A DNA stretch of 64,000 nt from Oscillospiraceae bacterium. Its GTDB lineage: Bacteria > Bacillota > Clostridia > Oscillospirales > Oscillospiraceae. Below the pieces are notes generated by a model. The model was not told where the DNA came from. It was given only the letters and a program-made list of their open reading frames with translations, and did not search any database. The stretch covers positions 25,785 to 89,784 of the forward strand of contig JAFYAQ010000010.1 in NCBI GenBank assembly GCA_017540645.1, written 5' to 3'. A program made the translations under genes and the position numbers. How positions within the stretch are numbered: the first letter of the stretch is position 1; every line of letters starts with the position of its first letter. This document shows, piece by piece, positions 1 to 37,322 of the stretch.

Positions 1-1
1 A

Positions 2-20963: not shown

Positions 20964-22877
20964 TTACATCTCCAGCTCCTTCATCCGCCGCCACAGAGTG
21001 GAACGGCCGATGCCCAGCATCCGGGCGGCTTGGGTCTTGTTGCCGCCGCAGGCCTGGATGGCAGCCAAGATCTCCTCCGCGTCGAGGGGCTCCGCCGGGG
21101 AGGTCTCCTCCCCATTGGGCTCGACGCCCCCGGTCCCGGCGTCGGGGCTAAGCGACTCCAGGATGATCTGCCGGTAATGAAGGTTGGTGCGGCTGAGCAC
21201 GGAGAACCGCTCGGCGATATTCCTGAGTTCCCGGGTGTTGCCCGGCCAGCTGTACTTCCGGAGCTCCGGCAGGCCGGACAGGTCCCGCAGGGTGTTGTCG
21301 TCGATATGGGGGCAGAGACGGCGGAGATAATGGAGAAAGATCACGGGAACATCCTCCGGCCGCTGGGAGAGCGGCGGGATCTTCAGCGAGAGGATGTTCA
21401 GCCGGTAATAGAGGTCCTTCCGGAACTCCCCCCTCTGCACCAGCTGCCAGAGGTCCTGGTTGGTGGCGGAGAGGATCCGGATGTCGATGGGGCGGATCTT
21501 TTCGCTGCCCACCCGCATCACCTCCCGCTGCTCGATCACCCGCAGCAGATGGGCCTGGGTCTCCGGGGAGATCTCGGCGATCTCATCCAGGAACACGGTG
21601 CCGGAATCCGCCAGCTCGAAAACGCCCCGCTTGCCGCCCCGGCGGGCGCCGGTAAAGGCTCCCTCCTCGTAGCCGAAGAGTTCGCTCTCCAGCAGCTGTT
21701 GGGTCATGGCCGCGCAGTTGACGGCCACGAAAGGCTTTCCGCTCCGGGCGCTGGCGTTGTGGATGCTCTGGGCAAACAGCTCCTTGCCGGTGCCCGAGTC
21801 ACCGACGATCAGCAGCGTGGCGTCGCTTCTGGCGTATTCCCGGGCCGCGTCCACCGCCTTTCGCATCGCAGCGCTGTCGCCGATGATATCCTCAAAGCGG
21901 TGCTTCGCCACCAGGCCGCGGGCGTACAGCTTGTGGCGGATCTGGGCCTCGGCCTGTTCCACCTCATACACGTTCCGGAAGGTGGCCAGCGCTCCGATCA
22001 CTTTCCCGTCGGCCACCATGGGGACCCGGTTCGTGAGCACTTTTGTGTTCCTTTCGTCCTGGATCTGGTCCAGCTCCTTGATCCCGGTCTGCCGGACAAT
22101 ATTCAGCCGGGTATTGGTCAGCACGTCGTAAACCTTTTTTCCCACGGTATCTGCGCTCCGAATGCCGAAGATCTTTTCGGCGCTGGGATTGCACAGAGTG
22201 ATCACATCGTCCTGATTGGTGGCGATCACGCCCTCGCTGATGAAATTGAGCACGCTGGAGAGCTGCCGGGACTGCATGGCCTCCTGGTAGCGGGACTCCA
22301 CCAGATCGGCGGCGGTACGGATCGCCTCGGTGAGACCGGCCTCCGTGACGATATAGTGGCCGTAAAGCCCGTACTCCGCCGCCACCTGCAGCGCCAGACT
22401 GCCGCCGATCACATCCCGGATGCCCTGATCCGCCAGATCCCGGATGATGTCCTCCAGCTGCCGCCGGGTGGAATAGGTACAGATGGTAACGGACAGATTC
22501 GTCAGGTCCTTCAGCATGTGAAGGGCATGGGTCAGCTCCGGATCCGAGGTCTCAAAAAATATACAGCCCACCCGGTCGGTATGCAGGCTCGCGTCCCGCA
22601 GCACGCCGATGATATCGTAGCCGTTGGGGCGGATCTGAACGATGGGAATGGAAGTGATGACATGCTCCAGCGTGGCCGCGTTCCCCCCGGAGGCCACAAA
22701 GGCGTCCACCCGGCCCTCCGCTTCCAGCCGTTTGGCCTCGGCGGACAAATCGTTGAGGACCAGATTCGCATGGATCAGCTCCACATTCGCCGGGATCAAT
22801 TCCGGACTCAGGCTGTTCACCATCTTTTCCAGAATTCCATAGGTAGCCACACAGATCCGGATTTTCAAGTGTACCAT
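20964..22877 (-). CDS. Sigma-54-dependent transcriptional activator, PrpR family
   Basis: 637 aa; PrpR_N-like N-terminus, central PAS-like region, AAA+ sigma-54 interaction module (GDSGTGKELFAQSIH, ESELFGYEEGAFTGA, GTVFLDEI), C-terminal Fis-type HTH (AARMLGIGRSTLWRRMK). Confidence 0.9.
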   Translation of the reverse strand: MVHLKIRICVATYGILEKMVNSLSPELIPANVELIHANLVLNDLSAEAKRLEAEGRVDAFVASGGNAATLEHVITSIPIVQIRPNGYDIIGVLRDASLHTDRVGCIFFETSDPELTHALHMLKDLTNLSVTICTYSTRRQLEDIIRDLADQGIRDVIGGSLALQVAAEYGLYGHYIVTEAGLTEAIRTAADLVESRYQEAMQSRQLSSVLNFISEGVIATNQDDVITLCNPSAEKIFGIRSADTVGKKVYDVLTNTRLNIVRQTGIKELDQIQDERNTKVLTNRVPMVADGKVIGALATFRNVYEVEQAEAQIRHKLYARGLVAKHRFEDIIGDSAAMRKAVDAAREYARSDATLLIVGDSGTGKELFAQSIHNASARSGKPFVAVNCAAMTQQLLESELFGYEEGAFTGARRGGKRGVFELADSGTVFLDEIAEISPETQAHLLRVIEQREVMRVGSEKIRPIDIRILSATNQDLWQLVQRGEFRKDLYYRLNILSLKIPPLSQRPEDVPVIFLHYLRRLCPHIDDNTLRDLSGLPELRKYSWPGNTRELRNIAERFSVLSRTNLHYRQIILESLSPDAGTGGVEPNGEETSPAEPLDAEEILAAIQACGGNKTQAARMLGIGRSTLWRRMKELEM

Positions 22878-22886
22878 CTCCTCGGG

Positions 22887-22923
22887 TGTTTCACCGTTTC
22901 ATTGAAACGTTTCGTATGAAACA
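22887..22923. promoter_or_regulatory. Cluster of GTTTC/GAAAC inverted repeats (candidate activator UAS)
   Basis: TGTTTCA 22887, CGTTTCA 22895, TGAAACG 22903, CGTTTCG 22908, TGAAACA 22917. The centre is ~147 bp upstream of the -24 element and 10 nt from the activator ATG. Confidence 0.55.
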
Positions 22924-23050
22924 GTGTACCGGAAAACGTTGGAATTTGCAAGAGGGTTCCGGGAAAAAGGACGAACCCCTGCTGAAAAATAGCACAAAAA
23001 GGAAAAAGGGGTTTTAGTCGATTGATCTAAAAATCTTTTTTTATGAATGT

Positions 23051-23066
23051 TGGCACGGTTTTTGCG
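23051..23066 (+). promoter_or_regulatory. Sigma-54 (-24/-12) promoter
   Basis: TGGCAC ggttt TTGCG, an exact TGGCAC-N5-TTGC match to consensus, 48 nt upstream of the ATG at 23114. Confidence 0.8.
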
Positions 23067-23113
23067 TAAAAAGGGAATTGAAAAGAGTTCATACCATACA
23101 GGGAAGTGAAGCT

Positions 23114-24376
23114 ATGACTATTACGGAAAAAATACTGGCTGCTCACAGCGGCAGGGATCACGTGGTCCCGGGAGAGCTGGTAACGGCCCGGCTGGACGGC
23201 GTGCTGGCCAACGACGTCACCACCCACATCGCCGTGAAGGAATTTCGGGCCATGGGCTTTGACAAAGTGTTCGACAAGGAACGGGTGTATCTGGTGAACG
23301 ACCACTTTGCCCCCAACGCCAACATCAATGCAGCCACGGCAAGCAAGGTAGCCCGGGATTTCGCCTGTGAGTGCTCCGTCCGGCATTTTTACGACGTGGG
23401 CCGGATGGGCATTGAGCACGCCCTGCTGCCGGAGCAGGGCCTGGTGCTCCCCGGAGAGGCCGTTGTCGGCGGCGACTCCCATACCTGCACCTACGGCGCC
23501 CTGGGCGCTTTCAGCACCGGCATGGGCAGCACCGATATCGCCGTGGCCATGGGCACAGGAGAGCTGTGGTTCAAGGTGCCCAAAACCAGGAAGTTCATTT
23601 TCAACGGCTCCTGTCCCCGGTATGTAACGGGAAAGGATCTGATGCTCTACACGCTGGGGAAGATCAGCGTGTCCGGAGCGCTGTATATGTCCATGGAGTT
23701 CGCGGGACAGGCGATCTCGGAGATGGACATGGACGGCCGCTTCACCATGTGCAACATGGCCATCGAGGCCGGGGCAAAGAACGGTATCATCGAACCGGAC
23801 GAGATGACCCTGGCCTATGTCCGGGAGCACAACCGGCTGAACCGCCCCTTCACGCTGTATAGAAGTGACCCCGACGCGGTCTATGAGCGGGTGGACGAGT
23901 GGGATGTGTCCTCTCTGGAGCCGGTGGTGGCCTGTCCCCATCTGCCGGACAACACCCGCTTTGTCTCCGAGGTGGGGGATGTTCCGGTCCACCAGGTGGT
24001 GATCGGTTCCTGTACAAACGGCCGCATCAGCGATCTGCGGGCGGCGGCGGAGATCCTCAAGGGGCAGCAGGTGGACCGAAACGTACGCTGTATCATCATA
24101 CCCGCCACCGGAGAGATCTACCGGCAGGCCATGCACGAGGGTCTGATGGATATTTTCCTGGACGCCGGCGCGGCCATCTCCACCCCCACCTGCGGACCCT
24201 GCTTCGGCGGGCACATGGGGATCCTGGCCAACGGCGAAACCGCAGTTTCCACCACCAACCGCAATTTTGTAGGCCGGATGGGCCATCCCGGCTCCTCCGT
24301 GTATCTGGCAAGTCCGTATGTGGCTGCCGCGGCGGCGGTGGCCGGCAGAATCATCCATCCCGGGGAGGTGAAGTAA
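23114..24376 (+). CDS. Aconitase-family hydro-lyase large subunit (LeuC / homoaconitase-like)
   Basis: Start at MTITEKILAAHSG. GGDSHTCTYGALGAF, GSCTNGR, TCGPCFGG (Fe-S ligands). Confidence 0.85.
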   Translation: MTITEKILAAHSGRDHVVPGELVTARLDGVLANDVTTHIAVKEFRAMGFDKVFDKERVYLVNDHFAPNANINAATASKVARDFACECSVRHFYDVGRMGIEHALLPEQGLVLPGEAVVGGDSHTCTYGALGAFSTGMGSTDIAVAMGTGELWFKVPKTRKFIFNGSCPRYVTGKDLMLYTLGKISVSGALYMSMEFAGQAISEMDMDGRFTMCNMAIEAGAKNGIIEPDEMTLAYVREHNRLNRPFTLYRSDPDAVYERVDEWDVSSLEPVVACPHLPDNTRFVSEVGDVPVHQVVIGSCTNGRISDLRAAAEILKGQQVDRNVRCIIIPATGEIYRQAMHEGLMDIFLDAGAAISTPTCGPCFGGHMGILANGETAVSTTNRNFVGRMGHPGSSVYLASPYVAAAAAVAGRIIHPGEVK

Positions 24377-24862
24377 ATGGGGATCGTTCATAAATATGGC
24401 GACAATGTGGACACCGATGTGATCGTTCCCGGCAAGTATCTCTCGCTCAATGACCCCAAGGCCCTGGCGAACATCTGCATGGAGGGCATCGACCCCGAAT
24501 TCCCCCGCCGGGTGAAGGAGGGGGACGTGATGGTCGGCGGCGCGAACTTCGGCTGCGGCAGCTCCCGGGAGCACGCCCCCATCGGCATCAAAGCCGCGGG
24601 GATCTCCTGTATCATCGCCGAGAGCTTTGCCCGGATCTTTTACCGCAACTCCATCAACCTGGGACTGCCGGTGCTGGAGGCGCCGGAGGCGGCCCGGGAA
24701 ATCTCTGCCGGGGATGAGGTGACCGTGGACATGGCCGCCGGCATCATCCGGAACCGGACCACCGGCCGGGAATATGCCTTTGTTCCCTTTCCCCCGTCCA
24801 TCATGCAGATCATTCTGGCTGGCGGAATAAAGGCCAAGCTGCTTTCCGATGCAAAGAAATAA
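24377..24862 (+). CDS. Aconitase-family hydro-lyase small subunit (LeuD type 2-like)
   Basis: 161 aa; YGDNVDTDVIVPGKYL, GANFGCGSSREHAP. Confidence 0.85.
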   Translation: MGIVHKYGDNVDTDVIVPGKYLSLNDPKALANICMEGIDPEFPRRVKEGDVMVGGANFGCGSSREHAPIGIKAAGISCIIAESFARIFYRNSINLGLPVLEAPEAAREISAGDEVTVDMAAGIIRNRTTGREYAFVPFPPSIMQIILAGGIKAKLLSDAKK

Positions 24863-24880
24863 ACATAGAGGAGGAATACT

Positions 24881-25744
24881 ATGAGCAAGGCAAAGTTACT
24901 GCGTGACATGCTTAACTCAGGCGAGCTGATCATGGCTCCGGGTGCGTACGATGTCTGGAGCGCGAAGATGGTGGAGGAGGCCGGATTCAAGGCGGTCTAC
25001 ATGACCGGCTACGGCGTATCCGCCAGCGTTCTGGGCAAACCGGACATCGGCCTGATGACCTTCTCCGAGGTCAGCACCATGGCCCGGAACATGGCCGCGG
25101 CCATCCAGGTTCCCCTGATCGCCGACTGCGACACCGGCTTCGGCAACGCTCTGAACGTCATGCGCTGCGTCCAGGAGTTCGAGTCGGCGGGCGTGGCAGC
25201 CATCCAGCTGGAGGACCAGGTGATGCCCAAGCGCTGCGGTCACATGGAGGGCAAGATGCTCATTCCCATGGAGGACATGGTGGCCAAGATCCGCGCGGCG
25301 GTGGCGGCCCGGAAGGACCCGGATTTCGTTATCATCGCCCGAACCGATGCCCGGGCTGTCTACGGCTTTGAGGAGGCGGTGGCCCGGTCCAAAGCCTACG
25401 TGGAGGCCGGCGCGGACGTGATCTTCTTCGAGGCGCCTCAGTCCGTAGAGGAAGTGAAGACCGTAGCCGCCACGCTGAATATCCCGCTGCTGTCCAACAT
25501 GGTGGAAAAGGGCAAGACGCCCCTCTTCTCCACGGAGGAACTCAAGGAGATGGGCTACAACATCGTGATCTATCCGGTGACGGCGTTGTACGCGGCCACC
25601 AAGCACGTGATGGAAACCCTGAAGGTGCTCCTGGAGACCGGCAAGATCTCCGAGACGGTGCCCTATACCTGTGATTTTCCCACCTTCAACAAAATGATCA
25701 ATCTCGCGGAGCTGCGCGCTCTGGAAAAATCCTTCTCGGAGTAA
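24881..25744 (+). CDS. Isocitrate lyase / PEP mutase family lyase (methylisocitrate-lyase-like)
   Basis: 287 aa; PGAYDVWSAK, DCDTGFGN, QLEDQVMPKRCGHMEGK (the K-R-C-G-H active-site loop), IIARTDA. Confidence 0.85.
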   Translation: MSKAKLLRDMLNSGELIMAPGAYDVWSAKMVEEAGFKAVYMTGYGVSASVLGKPDIGLMTFSEVSTMARNMAAAIQVPLIADCDTGFGNALNVMRCVQEFESAGVAAIQLEDQVMPKRCGHMEGKMLIPMEDMVAKIRAAVAARKDPDFVIIARTDARAVYGFEEAVARSKAYVEAGADVIFFEAPQSVEEVKTVAATLNIPLLSNMVEKGKTPLFSTEELKEMGYNIVIYPVTALYAATKHVMETLKVLLETGKISETVPYTCDFPTFNKMINLAELRALEKSFSE

Positions 25745-25758
25745 GAAAGGAGACGAAC

Positions 25759-26955
25759 ATGAAGATTCAGGATCTGCGGGAGCAGGAGAGCTTTCGGTGT
25801 ACGTACATGCGGGGCGGCACGAGCAAAGCAGTCTTTTTCAAGAAGAGCGACCTCCCCACCGATGAAAAGCTCCGGGATGAGATCATCATGGCCGTGTTCG
25901 GCACCGACGTGCGGCAGATCGACGGTCTTGGCGGCGCCGATATCACCACCAGCAAGGTGGCCATCATCGGGCCTCCCACCCGTCCGGACGCGGACGTGGA
26001 CTACAACTTCGGCCAGGTGCAGATGGGCCAGCACAAGATCGTCTGGACCAGCAACTGCGGCAACATCTCCTCCGCCGTGGCCCCCTTTGCCATCGACGAG
26101 GGCATGGTGAAAAACATCACCGAACCCATCACCGAGGTCCGCATCCACAATACCAACACACAGAAGGTCCTCATTTCCCGGGTCCATGTCAAGGACGGGC
26201 GGATGCAGTATTGCGGCGATTTCCATCTGGACGGCGTCCCCGGCACCGCGTCCAAGATCGAGCTGGACTACAAGCTCACCTACGGCGCCACCACCGGCAA
26301 GCTCCTGCCCACCGGGAATGTGGTGGATGAACTGGATGTGCCGGACTTTGGAAAGATCCAGGTGTCTCTGGTGGATATCGCCAATCCGGTCTGCTTTATC
26401 ACGGCGGAGTCCGTGGGCCTTCGGGGGGACGAATCCAAGCCCGAGCTGGCCGCGCTGAAGGACAAGCTGGAGCTGATGGAGCGGATCCGGGCGCAGGCGG
26501 CGGTGAAAATGGGCTATGTGGACCGGGCGGAGGACGCCCTGGAAAAAGCCACCACCCGTCCCATGCTCTCTATCGTTTCCCCCGCCCGGGACTACGCCGA
26601 TTATGCCTCCGGCAAACCGATCCTGGCAAAGGATCTGGACTTCCTGGCCCGGGTCCTCTGGAACCAGGAGCCGGTGGATACCTACACCGGCACCGGCACG
26701 ATCTGCACCTGCGTAGCCGCCCGGATCGAGGGCACTCTGGTCAACCAGGTATGCGGGCCCGAGCCGGAGAAGACCGGGCTTGTGCGCTTCGGCCACGGCC
26801 GGGGCATAAACAGCGTAGCCGTCACGGTCTCCCGCGACGCCGACGGCGGCTTTGTGGTGGACAAGGCAGTGTTCAACCGCACGGCCCGCCGCATCCTGGA
26901 CGGCATCGTGTATGTGAAGAAGGAAGTCATCAACGCCGCTATGGGCGAAGAATAA
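25759..26955 (+). CDS. PrpF family isomerase (2-methylaconitate/aconitate cis-trans isomerase-like)
   Basis: 398 aa; CTYMRGGTSKAVFF, TSKVAIIGP, NCGNISSAV, GTGTICT. Confidence 0.8.
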   Translation: MKIQDLREQESFRCTYMRGGTSKAVFFKKSDLPTDEKLRDEIIMAVFGTDVRQIDGLGGADITTSKVAIIGPPTRPDADVDYNFGQVQMGQHKIVWTSNCGNISSAVAPFAIDEGMVKNITEPITEVRIHNTNTQKVLISRVHVKDGRMQYCGDFHLDGVPGTASKIELDYKLTYGATTGKLLPTGNVVDELDVPDFGKIQVSLVDIANPVCFITAESVGLRGDESKPELAALKDKLELMERIRAQAAVKMGYVDRAEDALEKATTRPMLSIVSPARDYADYASGKPILAKDLDFLARVLWNQEPVDTYTGTGTICTCVAARIEGTLVNQVCGPEPEKTGLVRFGHGRGINSVAVTVSRDADGGFVVDKAVFNRTARRILDGIVYVKKEVINAAMGEE

Positions 26956-26988
26956 GAAATCCGAAATGATGGAGAGAGGAGAAGGCTG

Positions 26989-27876
26989 ATGTTAGCGGAA
27001 TTTGTATTCACTCCGACGGAATCCAAGCACCTGATCGCAAAAGCCGTGGCCCGGCTGCCTCAGGTCCAGAACGCGTTGAAAAACGGCATCGTGGCCATGC
27101 ATCCCAGCACCTCCACCTATTACCTCATGAAAGAGCTGATCGGGGAGTATCCGGATGTGGACAAGGTCTGGGTCACCGGCATGATCGTACCCAAGGCGCA
27201 GTGCGTGGAGGCCCACACCCAGCTGAAAAAATCGGAAAAGACCACCGGCCTGAACAAAGCTCTGGCCAACGCCGGCACCTACCCCCACACCTACGTCATC
27301 GTCAAGGGCCAACGCACCTACGGCTGGGTACTCAACGACCTGACGGAAAAAATGGGCAAAGGGGACATCTATGTCAAAGGCGTCAACGGCTATGATGCCG
27401 AGGGCCGCGTGGCCGTCCAGATCGGCAGCGTGGACGAGTACGGCACCATCGGGCGTATGGTCGCGGCGCGGAAGGTAAACGGCTTCGAGATCATCACCCC
27501 CGTGGGCCTGGAAAAGCTGGTGCCCGGCTCCCTGACCGAAGCGGCCAGGCGGATCAACCGGGGCATCGACTATTCCATGGGCGTCAAGTCCAGACTCTTC
27601 CCCTTCGAAGCCAACGCCATCACCGAAGTTCAAGCCCTGGAGTTTCTCTCCGGCGGCAAGGCCGTGCCGTTCTCCGCAGGCGGCGTCGGAGGTGCGGAAG
27701 GCGCGATCTCCATCGCGGTAGAGGGTACGGAGGAACAGGTCAGCGCGGCCATCGCCGTGGCCGAGTCGGTGAAGGGCTCCCAGCTCCCGCCCATCCATTC
27801 TCCCCAGTGCCTGGACTGCAGCATGCCCAGCTGCTATCTGTGCGGTGTAAAGAAGCCCTGGGTAAAAGATGAGTAA
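26989..27876 (+). CDS. Hypothetical protein with C-terminal Cys cluster (orphan inside the sigma-54 operon)
   Basis: 295-aa ORF in operon spacing with an AGGAGAAGG RBS. I could assign no family. C-terminus CLDCSMPSCYLCG. Confidence 0.6.
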   Translation: MLAEFVFTPTESKHLIAKAVARLPQVQNALKNGIVAMHPSTSTYYLMKELIGEYPDVDKVWVTGMIVPKAQCVEAHTQLKKSEKTTGLNKALANAGTYPHTYVIVKGQRTYGWVLNDLTEKMGKGDIYVKGVNGYDAEGRVAVQIGSVDEYGTIGRMVAARKVNGFEIITPVGLEKLVPGSLTEAARRINRGIDYSMGVKSRLFPFEANAITEVQALEFLSGGKAVPFSAGGVGGAEGAISIAVEGTEEQVSAAIAVAESVKGSQLPPIHSPQCLDCSMPSCYLCGVKKPWVKDE

Positions 27877-27912
27877 AAAAACCATTATAAATTTATTAAG
27901 GAGGTACTAATA

Positions 27913-29301
27913 ATGGGTGAAACTCGCGAATTGGCAAAGTTCGTATCCGAGCTGAAGTATGAGGACATCCCGGAAGAGGTAGTCCTCAAGGCAAAAACCA
28001 CCATGGCCGACTCCCTGGCCGGAGGCATTGCCGGCTTTGTGATCGCCAAGAAGGAATGCAAGTGGATCAAGGATACCGTGGATCAGTTCGGCGGCAAGCC
28101 CGAGACCACCCTGTGGATCGACGGCAGCAAGACCTCCGCTCTGATGGGCGCCCTGTGCAACGGCACCATGATGCACACCGTGGACTACGACGACACCTAT
28201 TACCGTGCCGTGGCCCACATCGGCTCCGCGGTGTTCGCCACCGCCATGTCCCTGGGCGAGGCCCACGACGCCACCGGTAAGGACCTGATCACCTCCTATG
28301 TGGCCGGTTTCGAGGCCGGTGCCCGCGGCGGCAACAGCGTCAACTACCAGACCCACACCCACAGCACCTATTTCCACACCACCGCTCCCACCTGCACCAT
28401 TGCCGCCGGCGCTACCGCCGCCAGGATGATGAACTTCGACGAGGATCAGACCGAGCGCTGCCTGGGTCTGGCCATCGACCAGGCTCAAGGCTTCCGGGCC
28501 TGCCTGGGCCAGGGAGACTTCACCAAGAGCCTCCACTGCGGCTGGCCTGCCATGCGTGGCGTTATGGCCTCCACCCTGGTGGGGAACGGCTCCACTGCTC
28601 CCCGTGGCCTGCTGGAAGATCCTCAGGGCTTCTGCAACGCCATGTCTCAGGATCCCAGACTGGATGAGATCACCCGTGGCCTGGGCACCATCTGGGAGCT
28701 GATGGGCGACTCCATCAAGATGTACCCCTCCATCGGCTGCGGCCACACCGCCGTGGAGACGCTGGCCACCATTTTCCGGGAGCAGAATCTGAAGCTGGAC
28801 GATGTGGAGTCTGTGCACATCCGCATCACCTATCTGGGGCCCGGCCAGGGCGCTCACAAGGAGTTCCACACCCCCATGCAGGCCCGTCTCTCCATGGCCT
28901 ATGCCTGCGCCACGGAGGCTCTCACCGGACATATCCTCCTCACCGACTACACCGATTCCGCCATCGACTTTGAGCGCGGCAAGCCCAGAAATCCCGAAGT
29001 CGAAAAACTGATGGAGATGATCGTTCTGGAGCAGGATCGGAGCCTCAACGAGCAGTATCCCGACGGCTCCGCCGCCGAGGCCACGGTCGTCACCAAGGAC
29101 GGTCGGACCTTCCAGTCCTTCCAGATCTATCCCCGGGGCTGCTCACCCCAGCGTCCCGCCACGGCGGAGGAGCTCTACAACAAGTTCATCGACGTCATCA
29201 CTCTGGTCTGGACCAAGGAAAAGGCCGAAAAAGTGTACGACATGTTCCTGAACCTGGAGGATTACACAGTCCGGGATCTCGTAGCGGCCATCATTGCCTG
29301 A
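27913..29301 (+). CDS. MmgE/PrpD family dehydratase
   Basis: 462 aa; N-terminal LAKFVSELKYEDIPEEV. The overall PrpD pattern includes DYDDTY, GFEAG and HCGWPA. Confidence 0.85.
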   Translation: MGETRELAKFVSELKYEDIPEEVVLKAKTTMADSLAGGIAGFVIAKKECKWIKDTVDQFGGKPETTLWIDGSKTSALMGALCNGTMMHTVDYDDTYYRAVAHIGSAVFATAMSLGEAHDATGKDLITSYVAGFEAGARGGNSVNYQTHTHSTYFHTTAPTCTIAAGATAARMMNFDEDQTERCLGLAIDQAQGFRACLGQGDFTKSLHCGWPAMRGVMASTLVGNGSTAPRGLLEDPQGFCNAMSQDPRLDEITRGLGTIWELMGDSIKMYPSIGCGHTAVETLATIFREQNLKLDDVESVHIRITYLGPGQGAHKEFHTPMQARLSMAYACATEALTGHILLTDYTDSAIDFERGKPRNPEVEKLMEMIVLEQDRSLNEQYPDGSAAEATVVTKDGRTFQSFQIYPRGCSPQRPATAEELYNKFIDVITLVWTKEKAEKVYDMFLNLEDYTVRDLVAAIIA

Positions 29302-29339
29302 GTATTGCACGGGAAATAAAATATTAGGAGGATATAAAA

Positions 29340-30644
29340 ATGCCAGCAGGTGTTGTTTGGTTTTTGATTCTGCTTGTGGTGTCCATTGCGATCGGCGCCG
29401 CGTTCAAGAAAAACATCGGTATCTTCGCTGTTCTCTCCGCTTTCCTGATTGCGGGCTTTATTGAGCCCTCCATCGGCGTCAGCGCCGTGTTCAGTGCCTG
29501 GCCCTCCAAACTGTTTGTCACGCTGCTGTTCGTCATGTTCTGGTTCGGCTTCGCCGTCACCAACGGAACGCTGAGCAAAATGGCCGACAATGTGGTGTGG
29601 GCGTTCCGGGGCGCACCCTGGGCCATTCCCTTTGTACTCTTTCTCCTGATCCTGCTCCTGTCCGCCGGCGGCATGGCGACCTACGCCTGCTTTGCCTTCA
29701 TGGGCCCCATCGTGGTGGAGATCGCCAAGAAGCTGAAGATGCATCGGATCATGGTGGCCTGCATCGTCATCGGCGGCTCGGTGATCGGCGGCATGACCCC
29801 CATCAGCCAGCTGGGACTGACGCATCTGAACACCATCACAAACGTAGGATACACCGCCGAGGAGGCCCGGCATATTCTCTGGGTCATGTTTGCCAACAAC
29901 TTCATCGGCGAGTTCCTGATGTTCCTGATCTGCTACTTCGTGTTCAAGACCTACAAGGTCAAGCTGGATCCGACCTTTGAAAAGCCCTCTCCCCTGGACG
30001 AGACACAGCGGAAGACCCTGTGGGTGTTCGGCAGCGGCATTGGCATCATCGTGCTGTTCTCCCTGCTGTATACCTTCTTCCCCAAGGTCGCTCTGATCAA
30101 GACCCTCTACAAGGGCTTTGACATCACTCTCGTAGCGCTTGTCGGTATCATCCTGTGCAACTTCCTGAAGATCGGCGAGCATAAGAAGGCCCTGTCCATT
30201 GTCCCGCTGGATTCTCTGATCCTGGTCTGCGGCATCAGCGTACTGGTCAGCATCGGCACCAAGGCCGGCGCGGTGGACGCCCTCTCTGCCTGGGCCGGCT
30301 CCAGCATCAACGGCACGGTGGCTCCGTACTTCATGGTCGTCATCAGCGCCATCTACAGTCTGTTCGCCGCGGCTGTTGGCGTAGTCGTCCCCACCATGGC
30401 CACGCTGATCCCCGGCCTGGTGGCCGCCAACGCCGCCTTCACTCCGGCGTACCTCTTCTCCCTGTCCAACACCCCCGCCATCCTCACCGGATACAGCCCC
30501 TTCTCCAGCGGCGGCTCCATCACCATGAGCGGCGTATTCGATCAGAAGGAGCGGGACGAACTGTTCAAATGGCTGCTGGTCTTCCCCGCCATGTCCACCG
30601 TGGTCTCCCTGATCCTCACTGCGCTCGGTCTGGTCATCAAATAA
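29340..30644 (+). CDS. Polytopic anion permease (ion-transporter superfamily, CitMHS/ArsB-NhaD-like)
   Basis: 434 aa, ~12 hydrophobic segments. Clear paralogue of the ORF at 62674-63966 (shared NGTL(S/K)K(M/L)A, LSAGG/GLGAGG and central EKPSPLDE/AKPEPLDE blocks). Confidence 0.7.
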   Translation: MPAGVVWFLILLVVSIAIGAAFKKNIGIFAVLSAFLIAGFIEPSIGVSAVFSAWPSKLFVTLLFVMFWFGFAVTNGTLSKMADNVVWAFRGAPWAIPFVLFLLILLLSAGGMATYACFAFMGPIVVEIAKKLKMHRIMVACIVIGGSVIGGMTPISQLGLTHLNTITNVGYTAEEARHILWVMFANNFIGEFLMFLICYFVFKTYKVKLDPTFEKPSPLDETQRKTLWVFGSGIGIIVLFSLLYTFFPKVALIKTLYKGFDITLVALVGIILCNFLKIGEHKKALSIVPLDSLILVCGISVLVSIGTKAGAVDALSAWAGSSINGTVAPYFMVVISAIYSLFAAAVGVVVPTMATLIPGLVAANAAFTPAYLFSLSNTPAILTGYSPFSSGGSITMSGVFDQKERDELFKWLLVFPAMSTVVSLILTALGLVIK

Positions 30645-30702: not shown

Positions 30703-30743
30703 CCGCCGCCCTGAGGGATGGCTTTGCGGAGCGGCCTCTGTGA
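30703..30743 (+). pseudogene. Remnant copy of the hisK 3' end
   Basis: ccgccgccctgaggg + atggctttgcggagcggcctct reproduces 20782-20796 and 20830-20851. It reads ..[12 protein letters not shown]-stop, against ..[23 protein letters not shown]-stop in the intact gene. Confidence 0.7.
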
Positions 30744-30756
30744 TACAACGCAAATC

Positions 30757-30810
30757 ATCGCCCCCTGTCCGGCAGACCAAGCTGCCGGACAGGGGGCGAT
30801 GTTATTTTTT
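30757..30810 (+). terminator. Intrinsic terminator, homologous in layout to the his terminator
   Basis: 19-bp stem atcgccccctgtccggcag / ctgccggacagggggcgat followed by gTTaTTTTTT. Confidence 0.85.
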
Positions 30811-30825
30811 CTGCGAAGCTCTTTC

Positions 30826-31554
30826 TCAGGCAAGAGAGTTATATGCTCCCTCGTCCACCGCTTCGCACCACTCGGTTTTCGTGTCCGTGCCGGGGATCTC
30901 CTGGGCGATGTGCTGGAACCAGGAATCCCGGGCGGCGCCGTGCCAGTGCTTCACGTTGGCGGGGATATTCACCACATCCCCCGGATGCAGCTCCCGCGGC
31001 TCTTTCCCCCACTCCTGATACCAGCCGCGTCCGTGGACGCAGATCAGCAGCTGTCCGCCGCCAGCGGCGGCGTGGTGGATATGCCAGTTGTTGCGGCATC
31101 CCGGCTCAAAGGTCACGTTGAAACTGGGGACCTGCTCCATGGTCAGGGGCTTGAGATAGCTCTGCCCCACGAAATACCGGGCAAAGCCGGTATTCGGCTC
31201 CCCGATGGGCAGCGTCAGCGCCGGGCGGGAGTCGTCTTCCTCGCCGTAGACCTCCGCGATCAGGGGGAAGGTGCTCCAGGCCTTGGGCCAGCCGCAGTAA
31301 AAGGCCAGCTGGGTCACCAGCTCCACGGCCTCGCTCTTTGTTACGCCATGCTCCTTGCCCATGGCCAGGTGGGCCTTGAGCTGGGGGTAAAGTCCCGCGG
31401 AGAACAGCGCCGCGATGGTGATCATGCTTCTGTCCCGGGGAGAGAGCTCGCTCTCCCGGGACCAGATCTGGCCGAACAGCACATCGTCGTTCAGCTCCGC
31501 GAATTTCGGGGCCAGCGCGCCCAGATGGTCGCGCCCGGCTGTCTGTTTTTTCAT
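30826..31554 (-). CDS. Carboxymuconolactone decarboxylase-family domain fused to a cupin domain
   Basis: The N-terminus LFGQIWSRESELSPRDRSMITIAAL is CMD-like. The C-terminus NNWHIHHAAAGGGQLLICVHGRGWYQEWG..GDVVNIPANVKHWHGA has the cupin motifs. Confidence 0.8.
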   Translation of the reverse strand: MKKQTAGRDHLGALAPKFAELNDDVLFGQIWSRESELSPRDRSMITIAALFSAGLYPQLKAHLAMGKEHGVTKSEAVELVTQLAFYCGWPKAWSTFPLIAEVYGEEDDSRPALTLPIGEPNTGFARYFVGQSYLKPLTMEQVPSFNVTFEPGCRNNWHIHHAAAGGGQLLICVHGRGWYQEWGKEPRELHPGDVVNIPANVKHWHGAARDSWFQHIAQEIPGTDTKTEWCEAVDEGAYNSLA

Positions 31555-31566
31555 CGTCGCCGCTCC

Positions 31567-32148
31567 TTATCCCCGCGCCGCCTTCATGATCTCCTTGCCG
31601 GCGTTCCAGGCCTTGCCCACCTTTTCCGTCGCCACATAGTAGCCAGGCTGGAACTGGTCGAAGATCAGGGCGTTCAGCTTCATGGGATTGACCTTCCCGT
31701 TTTCATCCAGCACGCTCTCCTCGGCGCTGACATTGACGATCCGCCCCACCACCGCATGGAGATTCTCCGTCTCGGTGATCTCCGCCAGCTCGCATTCCAT
31801 GGCCAGGGGGAACTCCGTGATGATGGGCGCGTTGACATGCTTGCTCTTTTCCTCATGGTAGCCGGATCTTAAAAATTTGTCGGGCATCCGGTTGCCGGTG
31901 GCGATGCCGTAATAATCCGCCACGTCCATGTGGTCTCTGTCCGCAATGCTGACCGTAAAAGCCCCGGTCTGGCGGATGGCCTTGGTGGTGGCATGCTCCT
32001 CGTCGATGAAGAGGGCGATCTTGTCCATGTCGCTGATCATGCCCCAGGCCGCGTTCATCACCTGCACGGTCCCGGCCGCGTCATAGGCCGCGACCATCAG
32101 CACCGGCATGGGGAAGACCGCCGGCACTTTCCCCAGATCTTTTCTCAT
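31567..32148 (-). CDS. Flavin reductase-like FMN-binding protein
   Basis: Start at MRKDLGK (ATG 32148, GGAGG 11 nt upstream). PVLMVAAYD..NAAWGMI pattern of the flavin reductase split-barrel family. Confidence 0.75.
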   Translation of the reverse strand: MRKDLGKVPAVFPMPVLMVAAYDAAGTVQVMNAAWGMISDMDKIALFIDEEHATTKAIRQTGAFTVSIADRDHMDVADYYGIATGNRMPDKFLRSGYHEEKSKHVNAPIITEFPLAMECELAEITETENLHAVVGRIVNVSAEESVLDENGKVNPMKLNALIFDQFQPGYYVATEKVGKAWNAGKEIMKAARG

Positions 32149-33440: not shown

Positions 33441-34364
33441 TCATTTGTTTTTCGGCGGGGCGATCCCCTTTGTCTGGATAAACTGATAAAAGGCATGGAT
33501 GTGCGGAGGTACCGTGCGCTGCTTTCGTATCACCATCTGCGTGTCCCGGATCAGCGGGTTTTCCAGCGGGATCGTCACCAGCTCGTCGGACTCCTCGATC
33601 ACCAGCTTGGAGAGAATGGCGATCCCCACATTTTGCGACACCATGTGCAGCACCGAGCGTACATTGGTGCAGTAGGTGGCGATACTGACATGGACGCCAT
33701 AGGCCTCCAATGTGCTGCGGATGGCCGTATGGTACACGTCCATGGTTTTATCGGTGGTGATCAGGCGCTGGCCCTCCAGATCCGCATAGGTCAAAAGCTT
33801 TTTGCCCGCCAGGGGGTGGGATCGGTTCACAAAGACAAAGTACGGGTCAATGGAAAAAGAACAGGAGATGTAGCGCGGGTCTCCGGAAAAGTTTTTGTGC
33901 TCCCCGTTTTGCAGGTACATGCTGGACACGAAGACCACGTCCAGTTCCCTCTGCTCCAGACGCTGCAGGAGGGGCGTGGTGGTGGATTCCTCCATGGTCA
34001 CGTTCATGGCCGGATACTGCTTCATGAATTCCGCCAGCAGGGGGACCAGCCGGTTGTTCATGCCAAAATAAATGCTGCCTACCCGGAGGTCTCTCTGGTT
34101 GGCGGTCCGGTGGTACTCCGCCGACTGGTACAGGCCGTCCGCGTCTTCCAGGATCTTGGCGGCATAGTACATCACATCCTCGCCGGCGGGCGTCAGGCGT
34201 ACACGCCGGGTGGTGCGCTCAAAGATCTCCACTCCCAGCTCCTCCTCCAGCTTCCGCACGCTTTTGGACACGGAAGACTGGGAGCGGTGCAGACGCTCCG
34301 CCGCGTCCAGATAGGTCTTTTCCTGAATGATCGCCAGCACGCAGCGCAGCTGATCCAGATCCAT
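33441..34364 (-). CDS. LysR family transcriptional regulator
   Basis: MDLDQLRCVLAIIQEKTYLDAAERLHRSQSSVSKSVRKLEEELGVEIFER: wHTH followed by a LysR substrate-binding domain. Confidence 0.9.
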   Translation of the reverse strand: MDLDQLRCVLAIIQEKTYLDAAERLHRSQSSVSKSVRKLEEELGVEIFERTTRRVRLTPAGEDVMYYAAKILEDADGLYQSAEYHRTANQRDLRVGSIYFGMNNRLVPLLAEFMKQYPAMNVTMEESTTTPLLQRLEQRELDVVFVSSMYLQNGEHKNFSGDPRYISCSFSIDPYFVFVNRSHPLAGKKLLTYADLEGQRLITTDKTMDVYHTAIRSTLEAYGVHVSIATYCTNVRSVLHMVSQNVGIAILSKLVIEESDELVTIPLENPLIRDTQMVIRKQRTVPPHIHAFYQFIQTKGIAPPKNK

Positions 34365-34452
34365 GATCCGTCCCCCTTTCCATAGGCAAAAACGCCCGCC
34401 GCAGACAGCCTCCCCGGAACGGATCCGGAGATGCTGTCTGCGCGGTTTTTGT

Positions 34453-35730
34453 TTACATAACGCGGCTCCCGATGGTCTTGCCGTCGATTTTGTTGAGCGG
34501 CACGCCGGTCTTCACCGATTCCGCCGCTGCGACCCCGGCCGCCTCGCCCAGGCGCATGCAGGTGATCATCACCCGGATGCTGGCGTGAGCCTCGTACTCG
34601 GTGGAGATACAGCGCCCTGCCAGGATCAGGTTTTCGACCTCCGGGGTCACCATGGCCCGGTAGGGGATGGTGAACACGCCGGTTTTGGGTTTTTTGATGG
34701 TGCTGCCGATGCCGTCGGTATCGTGGACGTCGATGGGATAGGAGCTTTTCGCCACGGCGTCGTCAAAGACCCGGCCCTCCAGCACATCCTGGTTTTTCAG
34801 CACGTAGCAGCCCTGGATGCGCCGGGAATCCCGCAGGCCGGTAAAGCTGCCGGTGGCCGACAGCGTGGCCCCGGCAAAGCCGGGCACATGGCCGATAAAA
34901 TAATCGCTGATGCTCTTCACCTGCTCCCGGGCCTCCATCTCCGCCCGGGTCCAGTCCCTGGTGTCCAGGGGGTTGACCTTCACGCGGGTCATGTTCACAT
35001 ACCGGAGGCCGTTGGGCAGCGGGCGGGCCAGCAGGTTGTTGACCTTCAGCACCCCGGCCTTCACGCCCTCCATGGCGATGGCGGTCTTCTCCGTCTGGGG
35101 GAGGCCGTCATAGCGCTCGGCGTCCACGCCGGCGGCATAGAACATCAGACTGCCCGGCTGCAGAACGCCGTTTTCATCGCCCACCACGGAGCGGCAGCCC
35201 GCGTCCGCGGCCACGGAGCCGTGGAAGGAGGCGTCGACCACCGTTTTGGCCCGGACGCGCTGGATGCCCTCCTCGTTATGGAAGACCACCGTGCGGATCC
35301 GGCCGTTCTCCGTCTCCGTGCCGATCACCCGGGTGTGCAGCAGCACCTCCGCCCCGGAGGCCGTCACCAGCCGGTGGATCACCCGGATCAGGGCCTCGTA
35401 CTCATAGGGGATCACCTGCATTTCCAGATCCTTCCGGCCGCTGATCCAGATGGTCTGCACGCCGGGGGTGGCGCCCTCGGCCTCCAGGCCCTCCAGCACG
35501 TCCCGGATCACGCCCTTTTTGGGGGCGAAGCCCTCGCCCTCGGCAAAGCCCATGAACATGCCGATCTGCGCGCCGGTGGCCGTTCCGCCCAGGAAGGCCT
35601 TTTCCTCCAGGATCAGAGTCTTCGCCCCGTTCTTGGCGGCGGTGAGGCCGGCGGCAAAGCCCGCCGTGCCTCCGCCGACGACAACGGTATCGTATTCTCC
35701 CACCAGGGGGAACGCTTCGAATTTGCTCAT
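34453..35730 (-). CDS. FAD-dependent oxidoreductase (FAD_oxidored-type)
   Basis: 425 aa; YDTVVVGGGTAGFAAGLTAAKNGAKTLILEEKAFLGG dinucleotide fold. Confidence 0.8.
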   Translation of the reverse strand: MSKFEAFPLVGEYDTVVVGGGTAGFAAGLTAAKNGAKTLILEEKAFLGGTATGAQIGMFMGFAEGEGFAPKKGVIRDVLEGLEAEGATPGVQTIWISGRKDLEMQVIPYEYEALIRVIHRLVTASGAEVLLHTRVIGTETENGRIRTVVFHNEEGIQRVRAKTVVDASFHGSVAADAGCRSVVGDENGVLQPGSLMFYAAGVDAERYDGLPQTEKTAIAMEGVKAGVLKVNNLLARPLPNGLRYVNMTRVKVNPLDTRDWTRAEMEAREQVKSISDYFIGHVPGFAGATLSATGSFTGLRDSRRIQGCYVLKNQDVLEGRVFDDAVAKSSYPIDVHDTDGIGSTIKKPKTGVFTIPYRAMVTPEVENLILAGRCISTEYEAHASIRVMITCMRLGEAAGVAAAESVKTGVPLNKIDGKTIGSRVM

Positions 35731-35757
35731 TTTGGCACCTTTCCTGTCAAATCCGGA

Positions 35758-37203
35758 TCACATGATGGCCGCGCCGATGGGGTAGCCCACCACCGCGAAC
35801 AGGATCGCCGCCGCCACGGACCAGAGCAGGCCGTATTTGAGCATGGTGTCGGTCTTCAGCCAGCCGGTGCCGGCGGCGATGGCCGCGTGGGCGGTGCTGG
35901 GGGGCGTGGCGCAGGCCACACAGGCGCCCGCGCCGATGACGCAGGTCAGAGCCGCGGGGTTCACCCCGGCGATGGCCCCGCCGTACACCAGGGGCAGGGA
36001 GATGCTGTACATCAGCGTGACGGTCACGGTGTTGGAGGCAAAGTTGGTGATGATGACGGTGAACAGAGAGATGAAGAGAACGAACACAATGGGGTTCATG
36101 CTGCCGATCACCGGGGAGAGGGCACTGCTGATCCGCTCGGTGATGCCGGCGTCCTTGTTGGTCAGCGCGCTGCCCAGGATGCTGGTAGCCGCCACCATGA
36201 ACACCGCTCCCCAGGGCACACCCTTGGCCAGGGATTCGCCCCAGTTCATGAGAGGCTTGCCGCCGTCCTCAATGATGCAGAGCAGGATGCAGCCGATGAT
36301 AGCCGGGGTGGGGGTGCCCAGCGTGCTGATGGCCGAAGCCACACCGGGGAGGATGCCCTTGATAATGCCGGGCAGCAGCCACATGGCCACCACCGCCACG
36401 AACACGCCCAGGGTCCACTTTTCCTTGCGGCTCATGGGCTCCCTATTGGCGTTCAGGATGGAGCTGTCCAGATTCTTCAGCCGGTCCATGTCCAGACGAC
36501 AGACGAACTTGGTCAGCAGCAGGGCCACGAAGAAGATCACAAGGCAGGAGATCACGCCGAAGATGGTGTAGGAGACAAAGTTGATGGGAGCGCCCATGTC
36601 ATTCTCGTACAGGCTCAGGGCCATGGTGGTGACCGTGTGGGCGATGGGGGTGGCGGCGGTGGACAGGGAGGCGAAGAACAGGATGCCCAGCACCACGATC
36701 TGGGGGAAGCGGTCGCCCTTTTCATATTTCAGCTCGGCGAAGATCTGCTCGGCGATGGGCAGGCACACGATAAAGGCGGGAATGGGGCTCATGAAGGAGC
36801 CGATAAACAGGGGCGCGAAGAACAGCAGGCCCAGCAGCAGCCAGGGGTTCTTCTTGGCGAAGGGCCGGGTCACGATCCACAGCGCCACGCGCCGCAGGAA
36901 GCCGGTCTGCCGCAGCACATAGGTCAGCATGGAGGAGAACAGCACGAAGGAGGTGATCCAGCCGCCCATGGAACCGTTGAGGGCGCTGGAGTAGGTGTAC
37001 AGCGGAGTCAGGATCAGGGCTACGATGCACAGCAGGCTGGGCCAGGTGACGGAGACGAACATCCACAGCAGGATGGTGCCCACAAAGATGCAGGCGATCT
37101 GCATTCCCAGCTGGCTCAGTCCGAAGATCGGCGGGAGAAAGCCTCCGCACAGCATCAGCAGCACGCCGATAATGGTGAATACCCATTTTTTTGTGTCTTT
37201 CAT
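35758..37203 (-). CDS. SLC13/DASS family anion permease
   Basis: 481 aa polytopic protein; N-terminus KKWVFTIIGVLLML and general DASS topology. Confidence 0.75.
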   Translation of the reverse strand: MKDTKKWVFTIIGVLLMLCGGFLPPIFGLSQLGMQIACIFVGTILLWMFVSVTWPSLLCIVALILTPLYTYSSALNGSMGGWITSFVLFSSMLTYVLRQTGFLRRVALWIVTRPFAKKNPWLLLGLLFFAPLFIGSFMSPIPAFIVCLPIAEQIFAELKYEKGDRFPQIVVLGILFFASLSTAATPIAHTVTTMALSLYENDMGAPINFVSYTIFGVISCLVIFFVALLLTKFVCRLDMDRLKNLDSSILNANREPMSRKEKWTLGVFVAVVAMWLLPGIIKGILPGVASAISTLGTPTPAIIGCILLCIIEDGGKPLMNWGESLAKGVPWGAVFMVAATSILGSALTNKDAGITERISSALSPVIGSMNPIVFVLFISLFTVIITNFASNTVTVTLMYSISLPLVYGGAIAGVNPAALTCVIGAGACVACATPPSTAHAAIAAGTGWLKTDTMLKYGLLWSVAAAILFAVVGYPIGAAIM

Positions 37204-37271
37204 GATGGACCGCTCCTTTTTCTTTTGATGGTGCCATCATAGATTAGAAAGGAAAAAACAGCAATTCAAAG

Positions 37272-37310: not shown

Positions 37311-37322
37311 GGCGATCCCCTG

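Follow-up and report, generated by a model that had tools for sequence, protein, structure and literature searches.

A predicted sigma-54-dependent operon of a gut Oscillospiraceae bacterium as a candidate for CoA-independent catabolism of itaconate-family dicarboxylates

Our comparisons of gene content, protein families and related loci suggest, with a probability of roughly 55%, that an operon in the genome of an uncultured gut Oscillospiraceae bacterium would direct the sigma-54-dependent, coenzyme A (CoA)-independent catabolism of a branched C5/C6 dicarboxylate, taken up from outside and belonging to the itaconate family, to pyruvate together with acetate or propionate. By itaconate family we mean here the candidate substrates itaconate, citraconate, mesaconate, citramalate and acids of the 3-methylitaconate/dimethylmaleate type. 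The locus occupies positions 20964-30644 of a 64-kb stretch of contig JAFYAQ010000010.1 (64,000 nt, referred to throughout as the window), and our survey covers this window together with the flanks seen on matching metagenome contigs. Judged by its sequences, the nearest characterised relative of the operon is the last part of nicotinate fermentation and not the methylcitrate cycle, and it is from such likenesses that we infer each catalytic step, the order of the steps from the MmgE/PrpD protein to the lyase, and the substrate.

The locus consists of seven co-directional plus-strand genes and a divergent minus-strand gene for a PrpR-family activator, as identified from the open reading frame (ORF) list and by Pfam and NCBIfam profile scans. 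In order, the seven genes encode a LeuC/DmdA-type [4Fe-4S] hydro-lyase large subunit, a predicted alkylmaleate hydratase (23114-24376; Pfam Aconitase domain and TIGR02083), its LeuD/DmdB-type small subunit (24377-24862; Pfam and NCBIfam), a Dml-like C-C lyase of the phosphoenolpyruvate (PEP)-mutase/isocitrate-lyase superfamily with a KRCGH loop (24881-25744; Pfam and NCBIfam), a Mii-like double-bond isomerase of the PrpF family, which has the diaminopimelate-epimerase fold (25759-26955; match to 3g7k), a 295-residue orphan of a conserved family that has no Pfam or NCBIfam match (26989-27876; homologue set and AlphaFold (AF2) model), an enzyme of an uncharacterised and rare subfamily within the MmgE/PrpD superfamily (27913-29301; Pfam, NCBIfam and PDB relatives), and a di/tricarboxylate permease of the ion-transporter superfamily (MatC_N plus CitMHS; 29340-30644; Pfam). 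Gaps between these genes measure 0-38 nt. The LeuC-like gene starts at ATG 23114 and not at TTG 23078, because the NCBIfam alignment begins at residue 13 and the gene is called with a length of 420 aa on identical metagenome contigs. A predicted bidirectional intrinsic terminator, a hairpin with a 20-bp stem holding 15 G-C pairs followed by T runs (30756-30801), closes the operon, and the 384-codon plus-strand ORF at 30718-31872 is spurious, since the genes downstream of the operon run convergent to it. On the other side, upstream of the activator, lies the histidine biosynthesis (his) operon; its histidinol dehydrogenase shares 98% identity with that of a metagenome-assembled genome labelled Oscillospiraceae bacterium. 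No citrate-synthase-family (PrpC) or AMP-binding/acyl-CoA-synthetase (PrpE) gene was found in the window or the flanks seen.

A predicted sigma-54 promoter, TGGCACGGTTTTTGCG (TGGCAC-N5-TTGC; plus strand, 23051-23066), ends 48 nt ahead of the LeuC ATG. Taken alone the -24/-12 pattern does not occur significantly more often in the window than expected (5 matches with at most one mismatch, for an expectation of 2.1); the equivalent operons of two related loci, L171 and L172, hold an element at the same place, TGGCATGCTTTTTGCG (TGGCAT-N5-TTGC) and TGGCACAGAAATTGCA (TGGCAC-N5-TTGC) respectively. The required -24 GG, the -12 GC and their spacing, a GAFTGA activator and upstream repeats are by sequence all present. 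The repeats, CACCGTTTCATTGAAACGTTTCGTATGAAACAGTG (22892-22926), are inverted GTTTCA/TGAAAC half-sites that lie about 125-160 nt upstream of the -24/-12 element and are probably the binding sites of the activator, that is, putative upstream activating sequences. Similar half-sites stand upstream in L171 and L172, and the prpR-prpB spacer of E. coli combines the same half-sites with a -24/-12 element. The activator itself (20964-22877, minus strand; start at 22868 and 634 aa in the gene call on identical contigs) has PrpR_N, PAS, Sigma54_activat AAA+ and Fis-type HTH_8 domains, a Walker A motif GDSGTGK and its GAFTGA loop at residue 406. Its identity to E. coli PrpR amounts to 41% in the AAA+/HTH part and 30% in the N-terminal domain; it carries an extra PAS domain and scores 414.1 bits on the PrpR equivalog model TIGR02329, whose cut-off is 499.2; on this sequence evidence it is a PrpR-family enhancer-binding protein and not a PrpR equivalog. 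In one metagenome variant (L003, 5207-7110, equal to 20964-22868 of the window) the activator is called as two ORFs of 362 and 272 residues, so that either part of the population has a frameshifted regulator or the assembly is in error.

These results bear on a sequence-only reading of the same DNA, which had described a sigma-54/PrpR-controlled operon with dehydratase, isomerase, hydratase and lyase steps, a dedicated uptake system and no PrpC or PrpE. The gene order and coordinates it gave were recovered in full by the ORF list and profile scans, its regulatory proposal agrees with the element conserved in L171 and L172 and with the divergent GAFTGA activator, and the lack of PrpC and PrpE was confirmed within the same bounds. 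Isomerase, hydratase and C-C lyase steps are likewise supported and, together with an uptake system and no CoA-activating step, lead us to suggest as it did that the operon is built for an imported organic acid.

The four core enzymes resemble those of a cluster in Eubacterium barkeri (L034) that we take to encode the lower branch of nicotinate fermentation, with products named DmdA, DmdB, Dml and Mii in UniProt; the E. barkeri nicotinate cluster is said to have been described by Alhapel and colleagues in 2006. This branch runs from 3-methylitaconate through dimethylmaleate and (2R,3S)-dimethylmalate to propionate and pyruvate. In L034 a 614-residue gene, presumably that for 2-methyleneglutarate mutase by its position and by what is known of the locus, precedes Mii, and a MutL-type gene follows it. 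The best solved relative of the window isomerase is the E. barkeri 3-methylitaconate isomerase Mii (3g7k; 350.7 bits, 49% identity), against 236.7 bits for Shewanella PrpF; identity to Mii of L034 is 47.5%, and the score on the PrpF equivalog TIGR02334 is 294.4 for a cut-off of 440.55. The isomerase keeps the Mii active-site Ser, Lys and Cys (Ser17, Lys62, Cys96). No AcnD partner for a PrpF-type route was detected, TIGR02333 giving only 55 bits, on LeuC. The reaction of Mii, and a side activity of the enzyme on itaconate, are confirmed in the literature (PMC4720413).

Similarly, the lyase is closer to E. barkeri Dml (48.6% identity, 292 bits) than to E. coli PrpB (40.6%, 199 bits), and reaches 325.5 on the PrpB equivalog TIGR02317, under the cut-off of 354.4. 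Aligned with E. coli PrpB it retains the Mg ligands and the KRCGH loop, while PrpB Thr212, Arg241 and Arg270 are replaced by Val, Tyr and Phe, exactly as in 28 B12-linked Dml sequences. We take these three PrpB residues to hold the far carboxylate of succinate, as in the PrpB product complex, and Arg241 and Arg270 were reportedly identified as carboxylate ligands by Liu and colleagues in 2005; if this role is right, the Val/Tyr/Phe pocket suggests that the acid released by the window lyase lacks a second carboxylate. The hydratase subunits are 56% (LeuC) and 57% (LeuD) identical to DmdA and DmdB of L034, and the Fe-S cluster cysteines C300, C360 and C363 of LeuC are invariant in 53 of 53 aligned sequences. 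In a neighbour-joining tree LeuC groups with DmdA of E. barkeri and Moorella, with no separation by operon type. The LeuD specificity loop reads KYLSL, compared with RFLNT in E. barkeri DmdB. Use of this loop to discriminate DmdB from LeuD was dropped, as there was no verified biosynthetic LeuD and the LeuCD genes of L089 are not beside leuA/leuB.

Additional support comes from 80 loci fetched by scanning one genome per species with an alignment of the window isomerase and Mii (best match 51%). Isomerase, lyase and LeuCD co-occur in most of them, and 30 of the 80 carry the mutase within the stretch fetched around Mii, immediately beside Mii in E. barkeri and in the other loci inspected. In neighbour-joining trees the 30 mutase-linked loci form one isomerase clade and one lyase clade. 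The window isomerase groups apart from these, with L171, L172, L173 and L150, and the window lyase groups with L171, L172, L173, L046 and L032, sister to the Dml clade and not inside it; all six loci are without the mutase and have MmgE/PrpD genes, the orphan or both. The operon is conserved across lineages in varied arrangements: L171 reads PrpR, CitMHS permease, LeuCD, lyase, isomerase and orphan, with the contig ending before any MmgE/PrpD gene; L172 reads PrpR, isomerase, TRAP system, MmgE/PrpD, orphan, LeuCD, lyase and a second MmgE/PrpD; and L173 reads MmgE/PrpD, lyase, two MFS carriers, isomerase, MmgE/PrpD, orphan and MmgE/PrpD, with no activator and no LeuCD in the recovered stretch. 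The orphan is missing from L046 and L032, which have PrpR, MmgE/PrpD, TRAP, isomerase, lyase and LeuCD, with L032 continuing into a pyruvate:ferredoxin oxidoreductase subunit, and Proteobacterial loci (L061, L078 and others) combine MmgE/PrpD with isomerase, lyase and LeuCD, again without the orphan. The uptake system thus varies, being of the CitMHS type in the window and L171, TRAP in L172, L046 and L032, and MFS in L173. From this comparison it would appear that an uptake system plus MmgE/PrpD (and the orphan) replace the mutase as supplier of the isomerase substrate.

The MmgE/PrpD protein carries both Pfam domains of its superfamily and is far from E. coli PrpD (22% identity, 30 bits; 40.3 against a cut-off of 575 on PRK09425 and 29.9 against 458 on TIGR02330), which does not appear among its PDB matches at E values up to 10. 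Among solved structures it matches IDS epimerase and a functionally uncharacterised B. subtilis homologue best, with about 85 bits, and cis-aconitate decarboxylases (CAD) follow at 57-60 bits (E about 3e-15). In CAD numbering it keeps Asp93, Thr97, His103, His159, Lys207 and Lys272, a residue list said to stem from Chen and colleagues in 2019, and has Ile at the CAD-specific His277; with this residue and these scores it does not qualify for the CAD/IRG1 subfamily. All six residues that hold the 1,4-dicarboxylate or serve as catalytic histidine (H85, D88, H99, H150, K198 and K266 in IDS-epimerase numbering; list from PMC12290011) are present. Unlike IDS epimerase and the methylsuccinate isomerase Msi, which have Tyr145/Tyr148 as second catalytic base, it has His at this position; lacking the Tyr base, and with no acyl-CoA dehydrogenase in the operon, it does not fall with these enzymes either. 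Members of the superfamily are known to dehydrate, decarboxylate or epimerise substituted succinates (PMC12290011). The branch is rare, with about six proteins at more than 30% identity beyond near-identical gut sequences. Two homologues at 38% adjoin FixC/electron-transferring flavoprotein (ETF) genes, and one of them is also near an Old-Yellow-Enzyme-type (enoate-reductase-like) reductase, a second MmgE/PrpD gene and a TRAP binding protein. Because the MmgE/PrpD tree is star-like, no subfamily can be assigned.

The orphan gave no match in the Pfam and NCBIfam scans, in a Pfam scan of 29 family members or in a profile search of PDB sequences. A word-seeded search returned 622 homologues, and a full HMM search of 1.8 billion representatives places the family at 1086 clusters at 50% identity; nearly all members have 250-310 residues. 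Glu11, Lys13, His38, Asp126, Tyr128, Lys130, Asn133, Asp136, Glu175 and Lys176 are invariant, as are four cysteines (C72 and C274-x2-C277-x4-C282). The AF2 model is alpha/beta (pLDDT 88, pTM 0.89, less confident around the cysteines), and in a Foldseek comparison with the PDB it gave weak matches, with TM up to 0.35, to eIF2B subunits and to ribose-1,5-bisphosphate and methylthioribose-phosphate isomerases, which gives a hint of a NagB/RpiA-like fold but no assignment. All named holders of the orphan belong to anaerobic lineages, which combined with the cysteine motif suggests a metal or Fe-S site, at present speculation from sequence. In 40 environmental loci with enough flank, the most frequent neighbours are MmgE/PrpD (10 loci, 6 directly adjacent), family III CoA-transferase (8), acyl-CoA dehydrogenase (7), HpcH/HpaI lyase (6) and glycyl-radical enzymes (3), and on a Dehalococcoidia contig the genes around the orphan encode an HMGL-like protein, a CoA-transferase, Fe-S fumarase subunits and a protein of the citramalyl-CoA-lyase type. 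As the itaconate/methylsuccinate cluster comprises these same neighbour families (PMC12290011), the orphan family is tied to the metabolism of branched C5-dicarboxylates.

Two further orphan loci were noted. On an environmental contig (L140, 3081-10007) orphan and MmgE/PrpD have as neighbours genes for a methylmalonyl-CoA-mutase-type protein and a separate B12-binding subunit, for a carboxyltransferase and a CoA-transferase, and for a radical-SAM protein, with a Mii-like isomerase and a lyase upstream. On a marine metagenome contig (L177, 7001-8515) a divergent family member carries an AroM domain as a fusion and has an Asp/Glu-racemase-family gene beside it, in a cluster that also includes S-Me-THD (DUF917), DUF1177, an OPT transporter and a PucR regulator. 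AroM, we assume, belongs to the Asp/Glu-racemase superfamily as a Pfam clan; the AroM fusion in the large family search gave no link to a known function.

Combining these observations, we propose the following scheme for an itaconate-family acid. The PrpR-family activator would use its PrpR_N/PAS part to sense either the acid or an early intermediate, bind the GTTTCA/TGAAAC repeats and open the -24/-12 promoter, and the MatC/CitMHS permease would import the acid. MmgE/PrpD-superfamily enzymes deprotonate C2 of a 1,4-dicarboxylate, with epimerisation, dehydration or decarboxylation as possible outcomes; the window member, probably together with the orphan, may in this way turn the import (a stereoisomer, hydroxy acid or related form) into an acid of the 2-methylenesuccinate type. 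The PrpF/Mii-type isomerase would then shift the double bond to give an alkylmaleate of the citraconate or dimethylmaleate type, to which the LeuCD/DmdAB-type Fe-S hydratase would add water, yielding a (2R)-2-methylmalate-type acid, and the Dml-like lyase would cleave this to pyruvate and a monocarboxylate, acetate or propionate. LeuCD enzymes hydrate citraconate. We consider C5 acids (itaconate and its isomers) somewhat more likely substrates than methylitaconate, because the clade is distinct from true Mii, the other contexts of the orphan point to C5-dicarboxylates, and itaconate is reported in faeces. A narrower version, to which we give only tentative credence, is that the operon represents the first CoA-independent fermentation of itaconate, or of a C5 isomer or derivative, in strict gut anaerobes, in which an itaconate-type acid would go to citraconate and on through (R)-citramalate to pyruvate and acetate, with the orphan, as a member of an enzyme family not recognised before, and the MmgE/PrpD protein channelling further isomers or derivatives into the route.

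Several observations speak against this assignment to the itaconate family, and we set them out together. The isomerase has Val306 at the position of Mii His300 (Val/Thr in its clade), where His occurs in 80 of the 82 other sequences and in all 30 mutase-linked ones, and Lys227 at Mii Pro221 (Lys/Arg in the clade); of the positions at least 85% conserved in the other 82 isomerases, these two alone are altered throughout the window clade. His300 is, we assume, one of four active-site residues common to Mii and PrpF, beside Ser17, Lys62 and Cys96, a list that reportedly goes back to Velarde and colleagues in 2009. Loss of this His together with gain of Lys/Arg at 221 means that the substrate of the isomerase may differ from both itaconate and methylitaconate. 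The lyase in turn departs from mutase-linked Dml at 14 Dml-conserved positions, several of them near active-site loops, and has KRCGH instead of the KKCGH of Dml. LeuC scores 649.8 on the biosynthetic equivalog TIGR02083, above the cut-off of 610.65, so its sequence cannot tell DmdA from LeuC. MmgE/PrpD genes are found near the orphan in only about a quarter of the environmental orphan loci, and the MmgE/PrpD proteins that adjoin orphans are very diverse; the roles and pathway positions that we give to these two proteins from sequence are guesses. In an Acidaminococcus metagenome-assembled genome (L043, 186-4819) a PrpF-family gene 49% identical to that of the window has an aconitase-like gene and a permease of the CitMHS type next to it, and as Acidaminococcus ferments trans-aconitate this may be its aconitate isomerase. 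With such a gene adjoining an aconitase-like one, tricarboxylates stay in play for the window operon, and an identity to Mii of about 49% does not fix the substrate.

Were a tricarboxylate imported (cis- or trans-aconitate, 2-methyl-cis-aconitate or 2-methylcitrate), a CAD-like MmgE/PrpD enzyme could decarboxylate it to itaconate or 3-methylitaconate, and the same core would then deliver pyruvate with acetate or propionate. To our knowledge decarboxylation is the sole MmgE/PrpD reaction that makes a methylenesuccinate, the substrate of a Mii-type isomerase; moreover, decarboxylases are among the solved relatives of the window protein, which keeps the six CAD residues named above, CitMHS carriers often transport tricarboxylates, and MmgE/PrpD holds the place that the B12 mutase has in nicotinate clusters, feeding the isomerase. 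However, His277 is replaced by Ile, identity to CAD is low, with the B. subtilis homologue and IDS epimerase as better matches in the PDB, the 38% homologues lie beside enoate-reductase-like and ETF genes and not aconitate genes, and the orphan is left with no role, so that we regard this route as rather unlikely. Genuine nicotinate fermentation, with the upper genes including 2-methyleneglutarate mutase elsewhere and methylitaconate going to propionate and pyruvate, appears quite improbable to us. It would account well for four of the seven proteins, which belong to the same four families that are adjacent in E. barkeri (47.5-57% identity to Mii, Dml and DmdAB), for Mii as best solved relative of the isomerase, for the Val/Tyr/Phe lyase pocket, for the grouping of LeuC with E. 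barkeri and Moorella DmdA, and for a CoA-free chemistry ending in pyruvate and a monocarboxylate. Yet the window contains no gene for a 2-methyleneglutarate mutase, a MutL-type reactivase, a nicotinate dehydrogenase or an enamidase, although in the 30 mutase-linked loci the mutase gene is close to Mii; the isomerase (without His300, and with Lys for Pro221) and the lyase (KRCGH for KKCGH, and the 14 positions) fall in a separate clade; and the operon has instead a dedicated permease, the MmgE/PrpD protein and the orphan, under a sigma-54 activator.

The sequence-only reading had framed the operon as methylcitrate-cycle-like. A tricarboxylate route of this kind throughout, from 2-methylcitrate, aconitate or homocitrate to succinate and pyruvate or glyoxylate, has in its favour that the 2-methylcitrate cycle (prpBCDE with PrpR, or its AcnD/PrpF variant) draws on the same lyase, MmgE/PrpD, PrpF and aconitase superfamilies, and that the PrpR_N regulator, the PrpR-like half-sites, a divergent layout as in E. 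coli prpR-prpB and a tricarboxylate-type carrier are all found here. It is nonetheless less probable still in our judgement, and the framing does not hold up: with PrpC and PrpE missing from the window and the flanks seen, the PrpB, PrpF, PrpD and PrpR equivalog models all score under their cut-offs, the isomerase is nearer Mii than PrpF, the lyase is nearer Dml and has lost Thr212/Arg241/Arg270, the hydratase is of the LeuCD type and not AcnB/AcnD, and the MmgE/PrpD protein is remote from PrpD. LeuCD itself had been called atypical in such a set, whereas DmdAB with Dml and Mii is the standard equipment of the dimethylmalate branch and was seen in most of the loci fetched. That this LeuCD is a biosynthetic enzyme, for leucine or for isoleucine by the citramalate route, merely adjoining unrelated genes is hardly credible to us. 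LeuC passes its equivalog, LeuD at 227.7 falls just short of its cut-off of 245.85, and the Fe-S ligands are retained; against this, neither leuA/cimA nor leuB is present in the window, the context is catabolic, with tight packing behind one sigma-54 promoter together with lyase, isomerase and permease, the small-subunit loop reads KYLSL, and the gene set is conserved in L171 and L172. As to the substrate, the earlier view that sequence alone does not fix it is supported, and among the acids then listed the citramalate-type ones remain good candidates, while methylcitrate, aconitate and homocitrate are less likely than C5/C6 dicarboxylates. The phylogenetic and genomic-context placement then recommended set lyase and isomerase in a separate clade and left MmgE/PrpD in its star-like tree and LeuC unseparated from biosynthetic LeuC.

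Two known itaconate systems are also instructive in comparison with the proposed catabolic route. The itaconate/methylsuccinate cluster of Pseudomonas and Cupriavidus comprises Ict, Ich, Ccl and Mcd, together with Msi, a methylsuccinate isomerase of the MmgE/PrpD family (PMC12290011). Like the window operon as we read it, that cluster concerns branched C5 dicarboxylates and includes an MmgE/PrpD enzyme, and it shares the neighbour families of the environmental orphans. Unlike it, the window operon has no CoA-transferase, MaoC-type hydratase or CoA-ester lyase, which suggests that it works on free acids, and the Ict/Ich/Ccl genes were found neither in the operon nor in the window. In itaconate biosynthesis (CAD/IRG1, together with the PrpF-family aconitate isomerase Adi1 of Ustilago maydis, a relative of Mii; PMC4720413) an MmgE/PrpD enzyme is likewise paired with a Mii-like PrpF-family isomerase, for acids of the methylenesuccinate or aconitate type; the window operon differs in its predicted catabolic direction, in that the CAD His277 is not kept, and in that a hydratase and a lyase follow.

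The same operon, complete in many gut metagenomes, occurs on contigs from 46 metagenome-collection blocks, of which 24 contigs were read, and in gut metagenome runs. Four gut metatranscriptomes gave thin and patchy contigs across it, at a depth of about 2-4 and similar to the neighbouring his genes, which is compatible with low transcription in vivo; coverage this thin carries no information on induction or on the 5' end. Itaconate and related acids, products of immune and fungal metabolism, reach the gut, and human faeces contain itaconate and methylsuccinate in abundance (PMC12290011, with reference to Little et al.). So far, aerobic bacteria are known to degrade itaconate by CoA-dependent routes and anaerobic ones to reduce it to methylsuccinate, and none that ferments it is yet known (PMC12290011). 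If our reading is true, a CoA-free isomerase-hydratase-lyase route in abundant gut Clostridia would thus constitute a new sink for these acids and a new source of pyruvate, acetate and propionate. Our literature search turned up no account of an operon with this set of genes. Its core chemistry is known; the novelty lies in the pair of feeder proteins, in the changes to isomerase and lyase, in the uptake system and in control by sigma-54, with the orphan family new as a functional unit. The operon therefore offers a testable context both for the mostly uncharacterised MmgE/PrpD superfamily and for a family of about 1,000 clusters that has neither a Pfam model nor a structure. Annotation pipelines would name its genes leuC, leuD, prpB, prpF and prpD, giving misleading labels of leucine synthesis and propionate catabolism.

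Related pairings and loci were seen elsewhere. In four Lachnospiraceae/Oscillospiraceae loci (L067, L075, L087 and L089, about 10001-12500 in each) a PrpF-family isomerase gene is directly followed by a MatC/CitMHS permease, accompanied in L089 by a divergent LysR gene; this pair may be a separate small uptake-isomerisation module. Within the window a second sigma-54 locus (59436-63966, running past the window end; L179) begins with a perfect TGGCACGAAACTTGCA at 59436-59451, followed by an MFS carrier (59506-60705), a second PrpR_N-type activator 33% identical to the first (60807-62672) and a second MatC/CitMHS permease 28% identical to that of the operon (62674-63966), after which a matching contig continues with a beta-lactamase-family esterase and an alpha/beta hydrolase. 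A second organic-acid locus on the minus strand, convergent to the operon (33441-40094), holds a LysR regulator, a FAD_oxidored-family protein (34453-35730), a DASS/CitMHS carrier (35758-37203), a glycerate-kinase-type gene (DUF4147/MOFRL) and a dehydrogenase of the 2-hydroxyacid/3-hydroxyisobutyrate type. The stretch 40000-47000, at 47-50% GC compared with about 62% elsewhere, looks horizontally acquired and encodes an EamA exporter, an amino-acid permease, an ornithine-cyclodeaminase-family protein, a glutamate symporter and an RpiR-type regulator. Finally, positions 1-6981, upstream of the his operon, are a possible defence island, a run of large genes for a protein with an ion-channel domain, two to three others that have no Pfam match (280-820 residues), and a 685-residue TIR plus TPR protein at 4924-6981.

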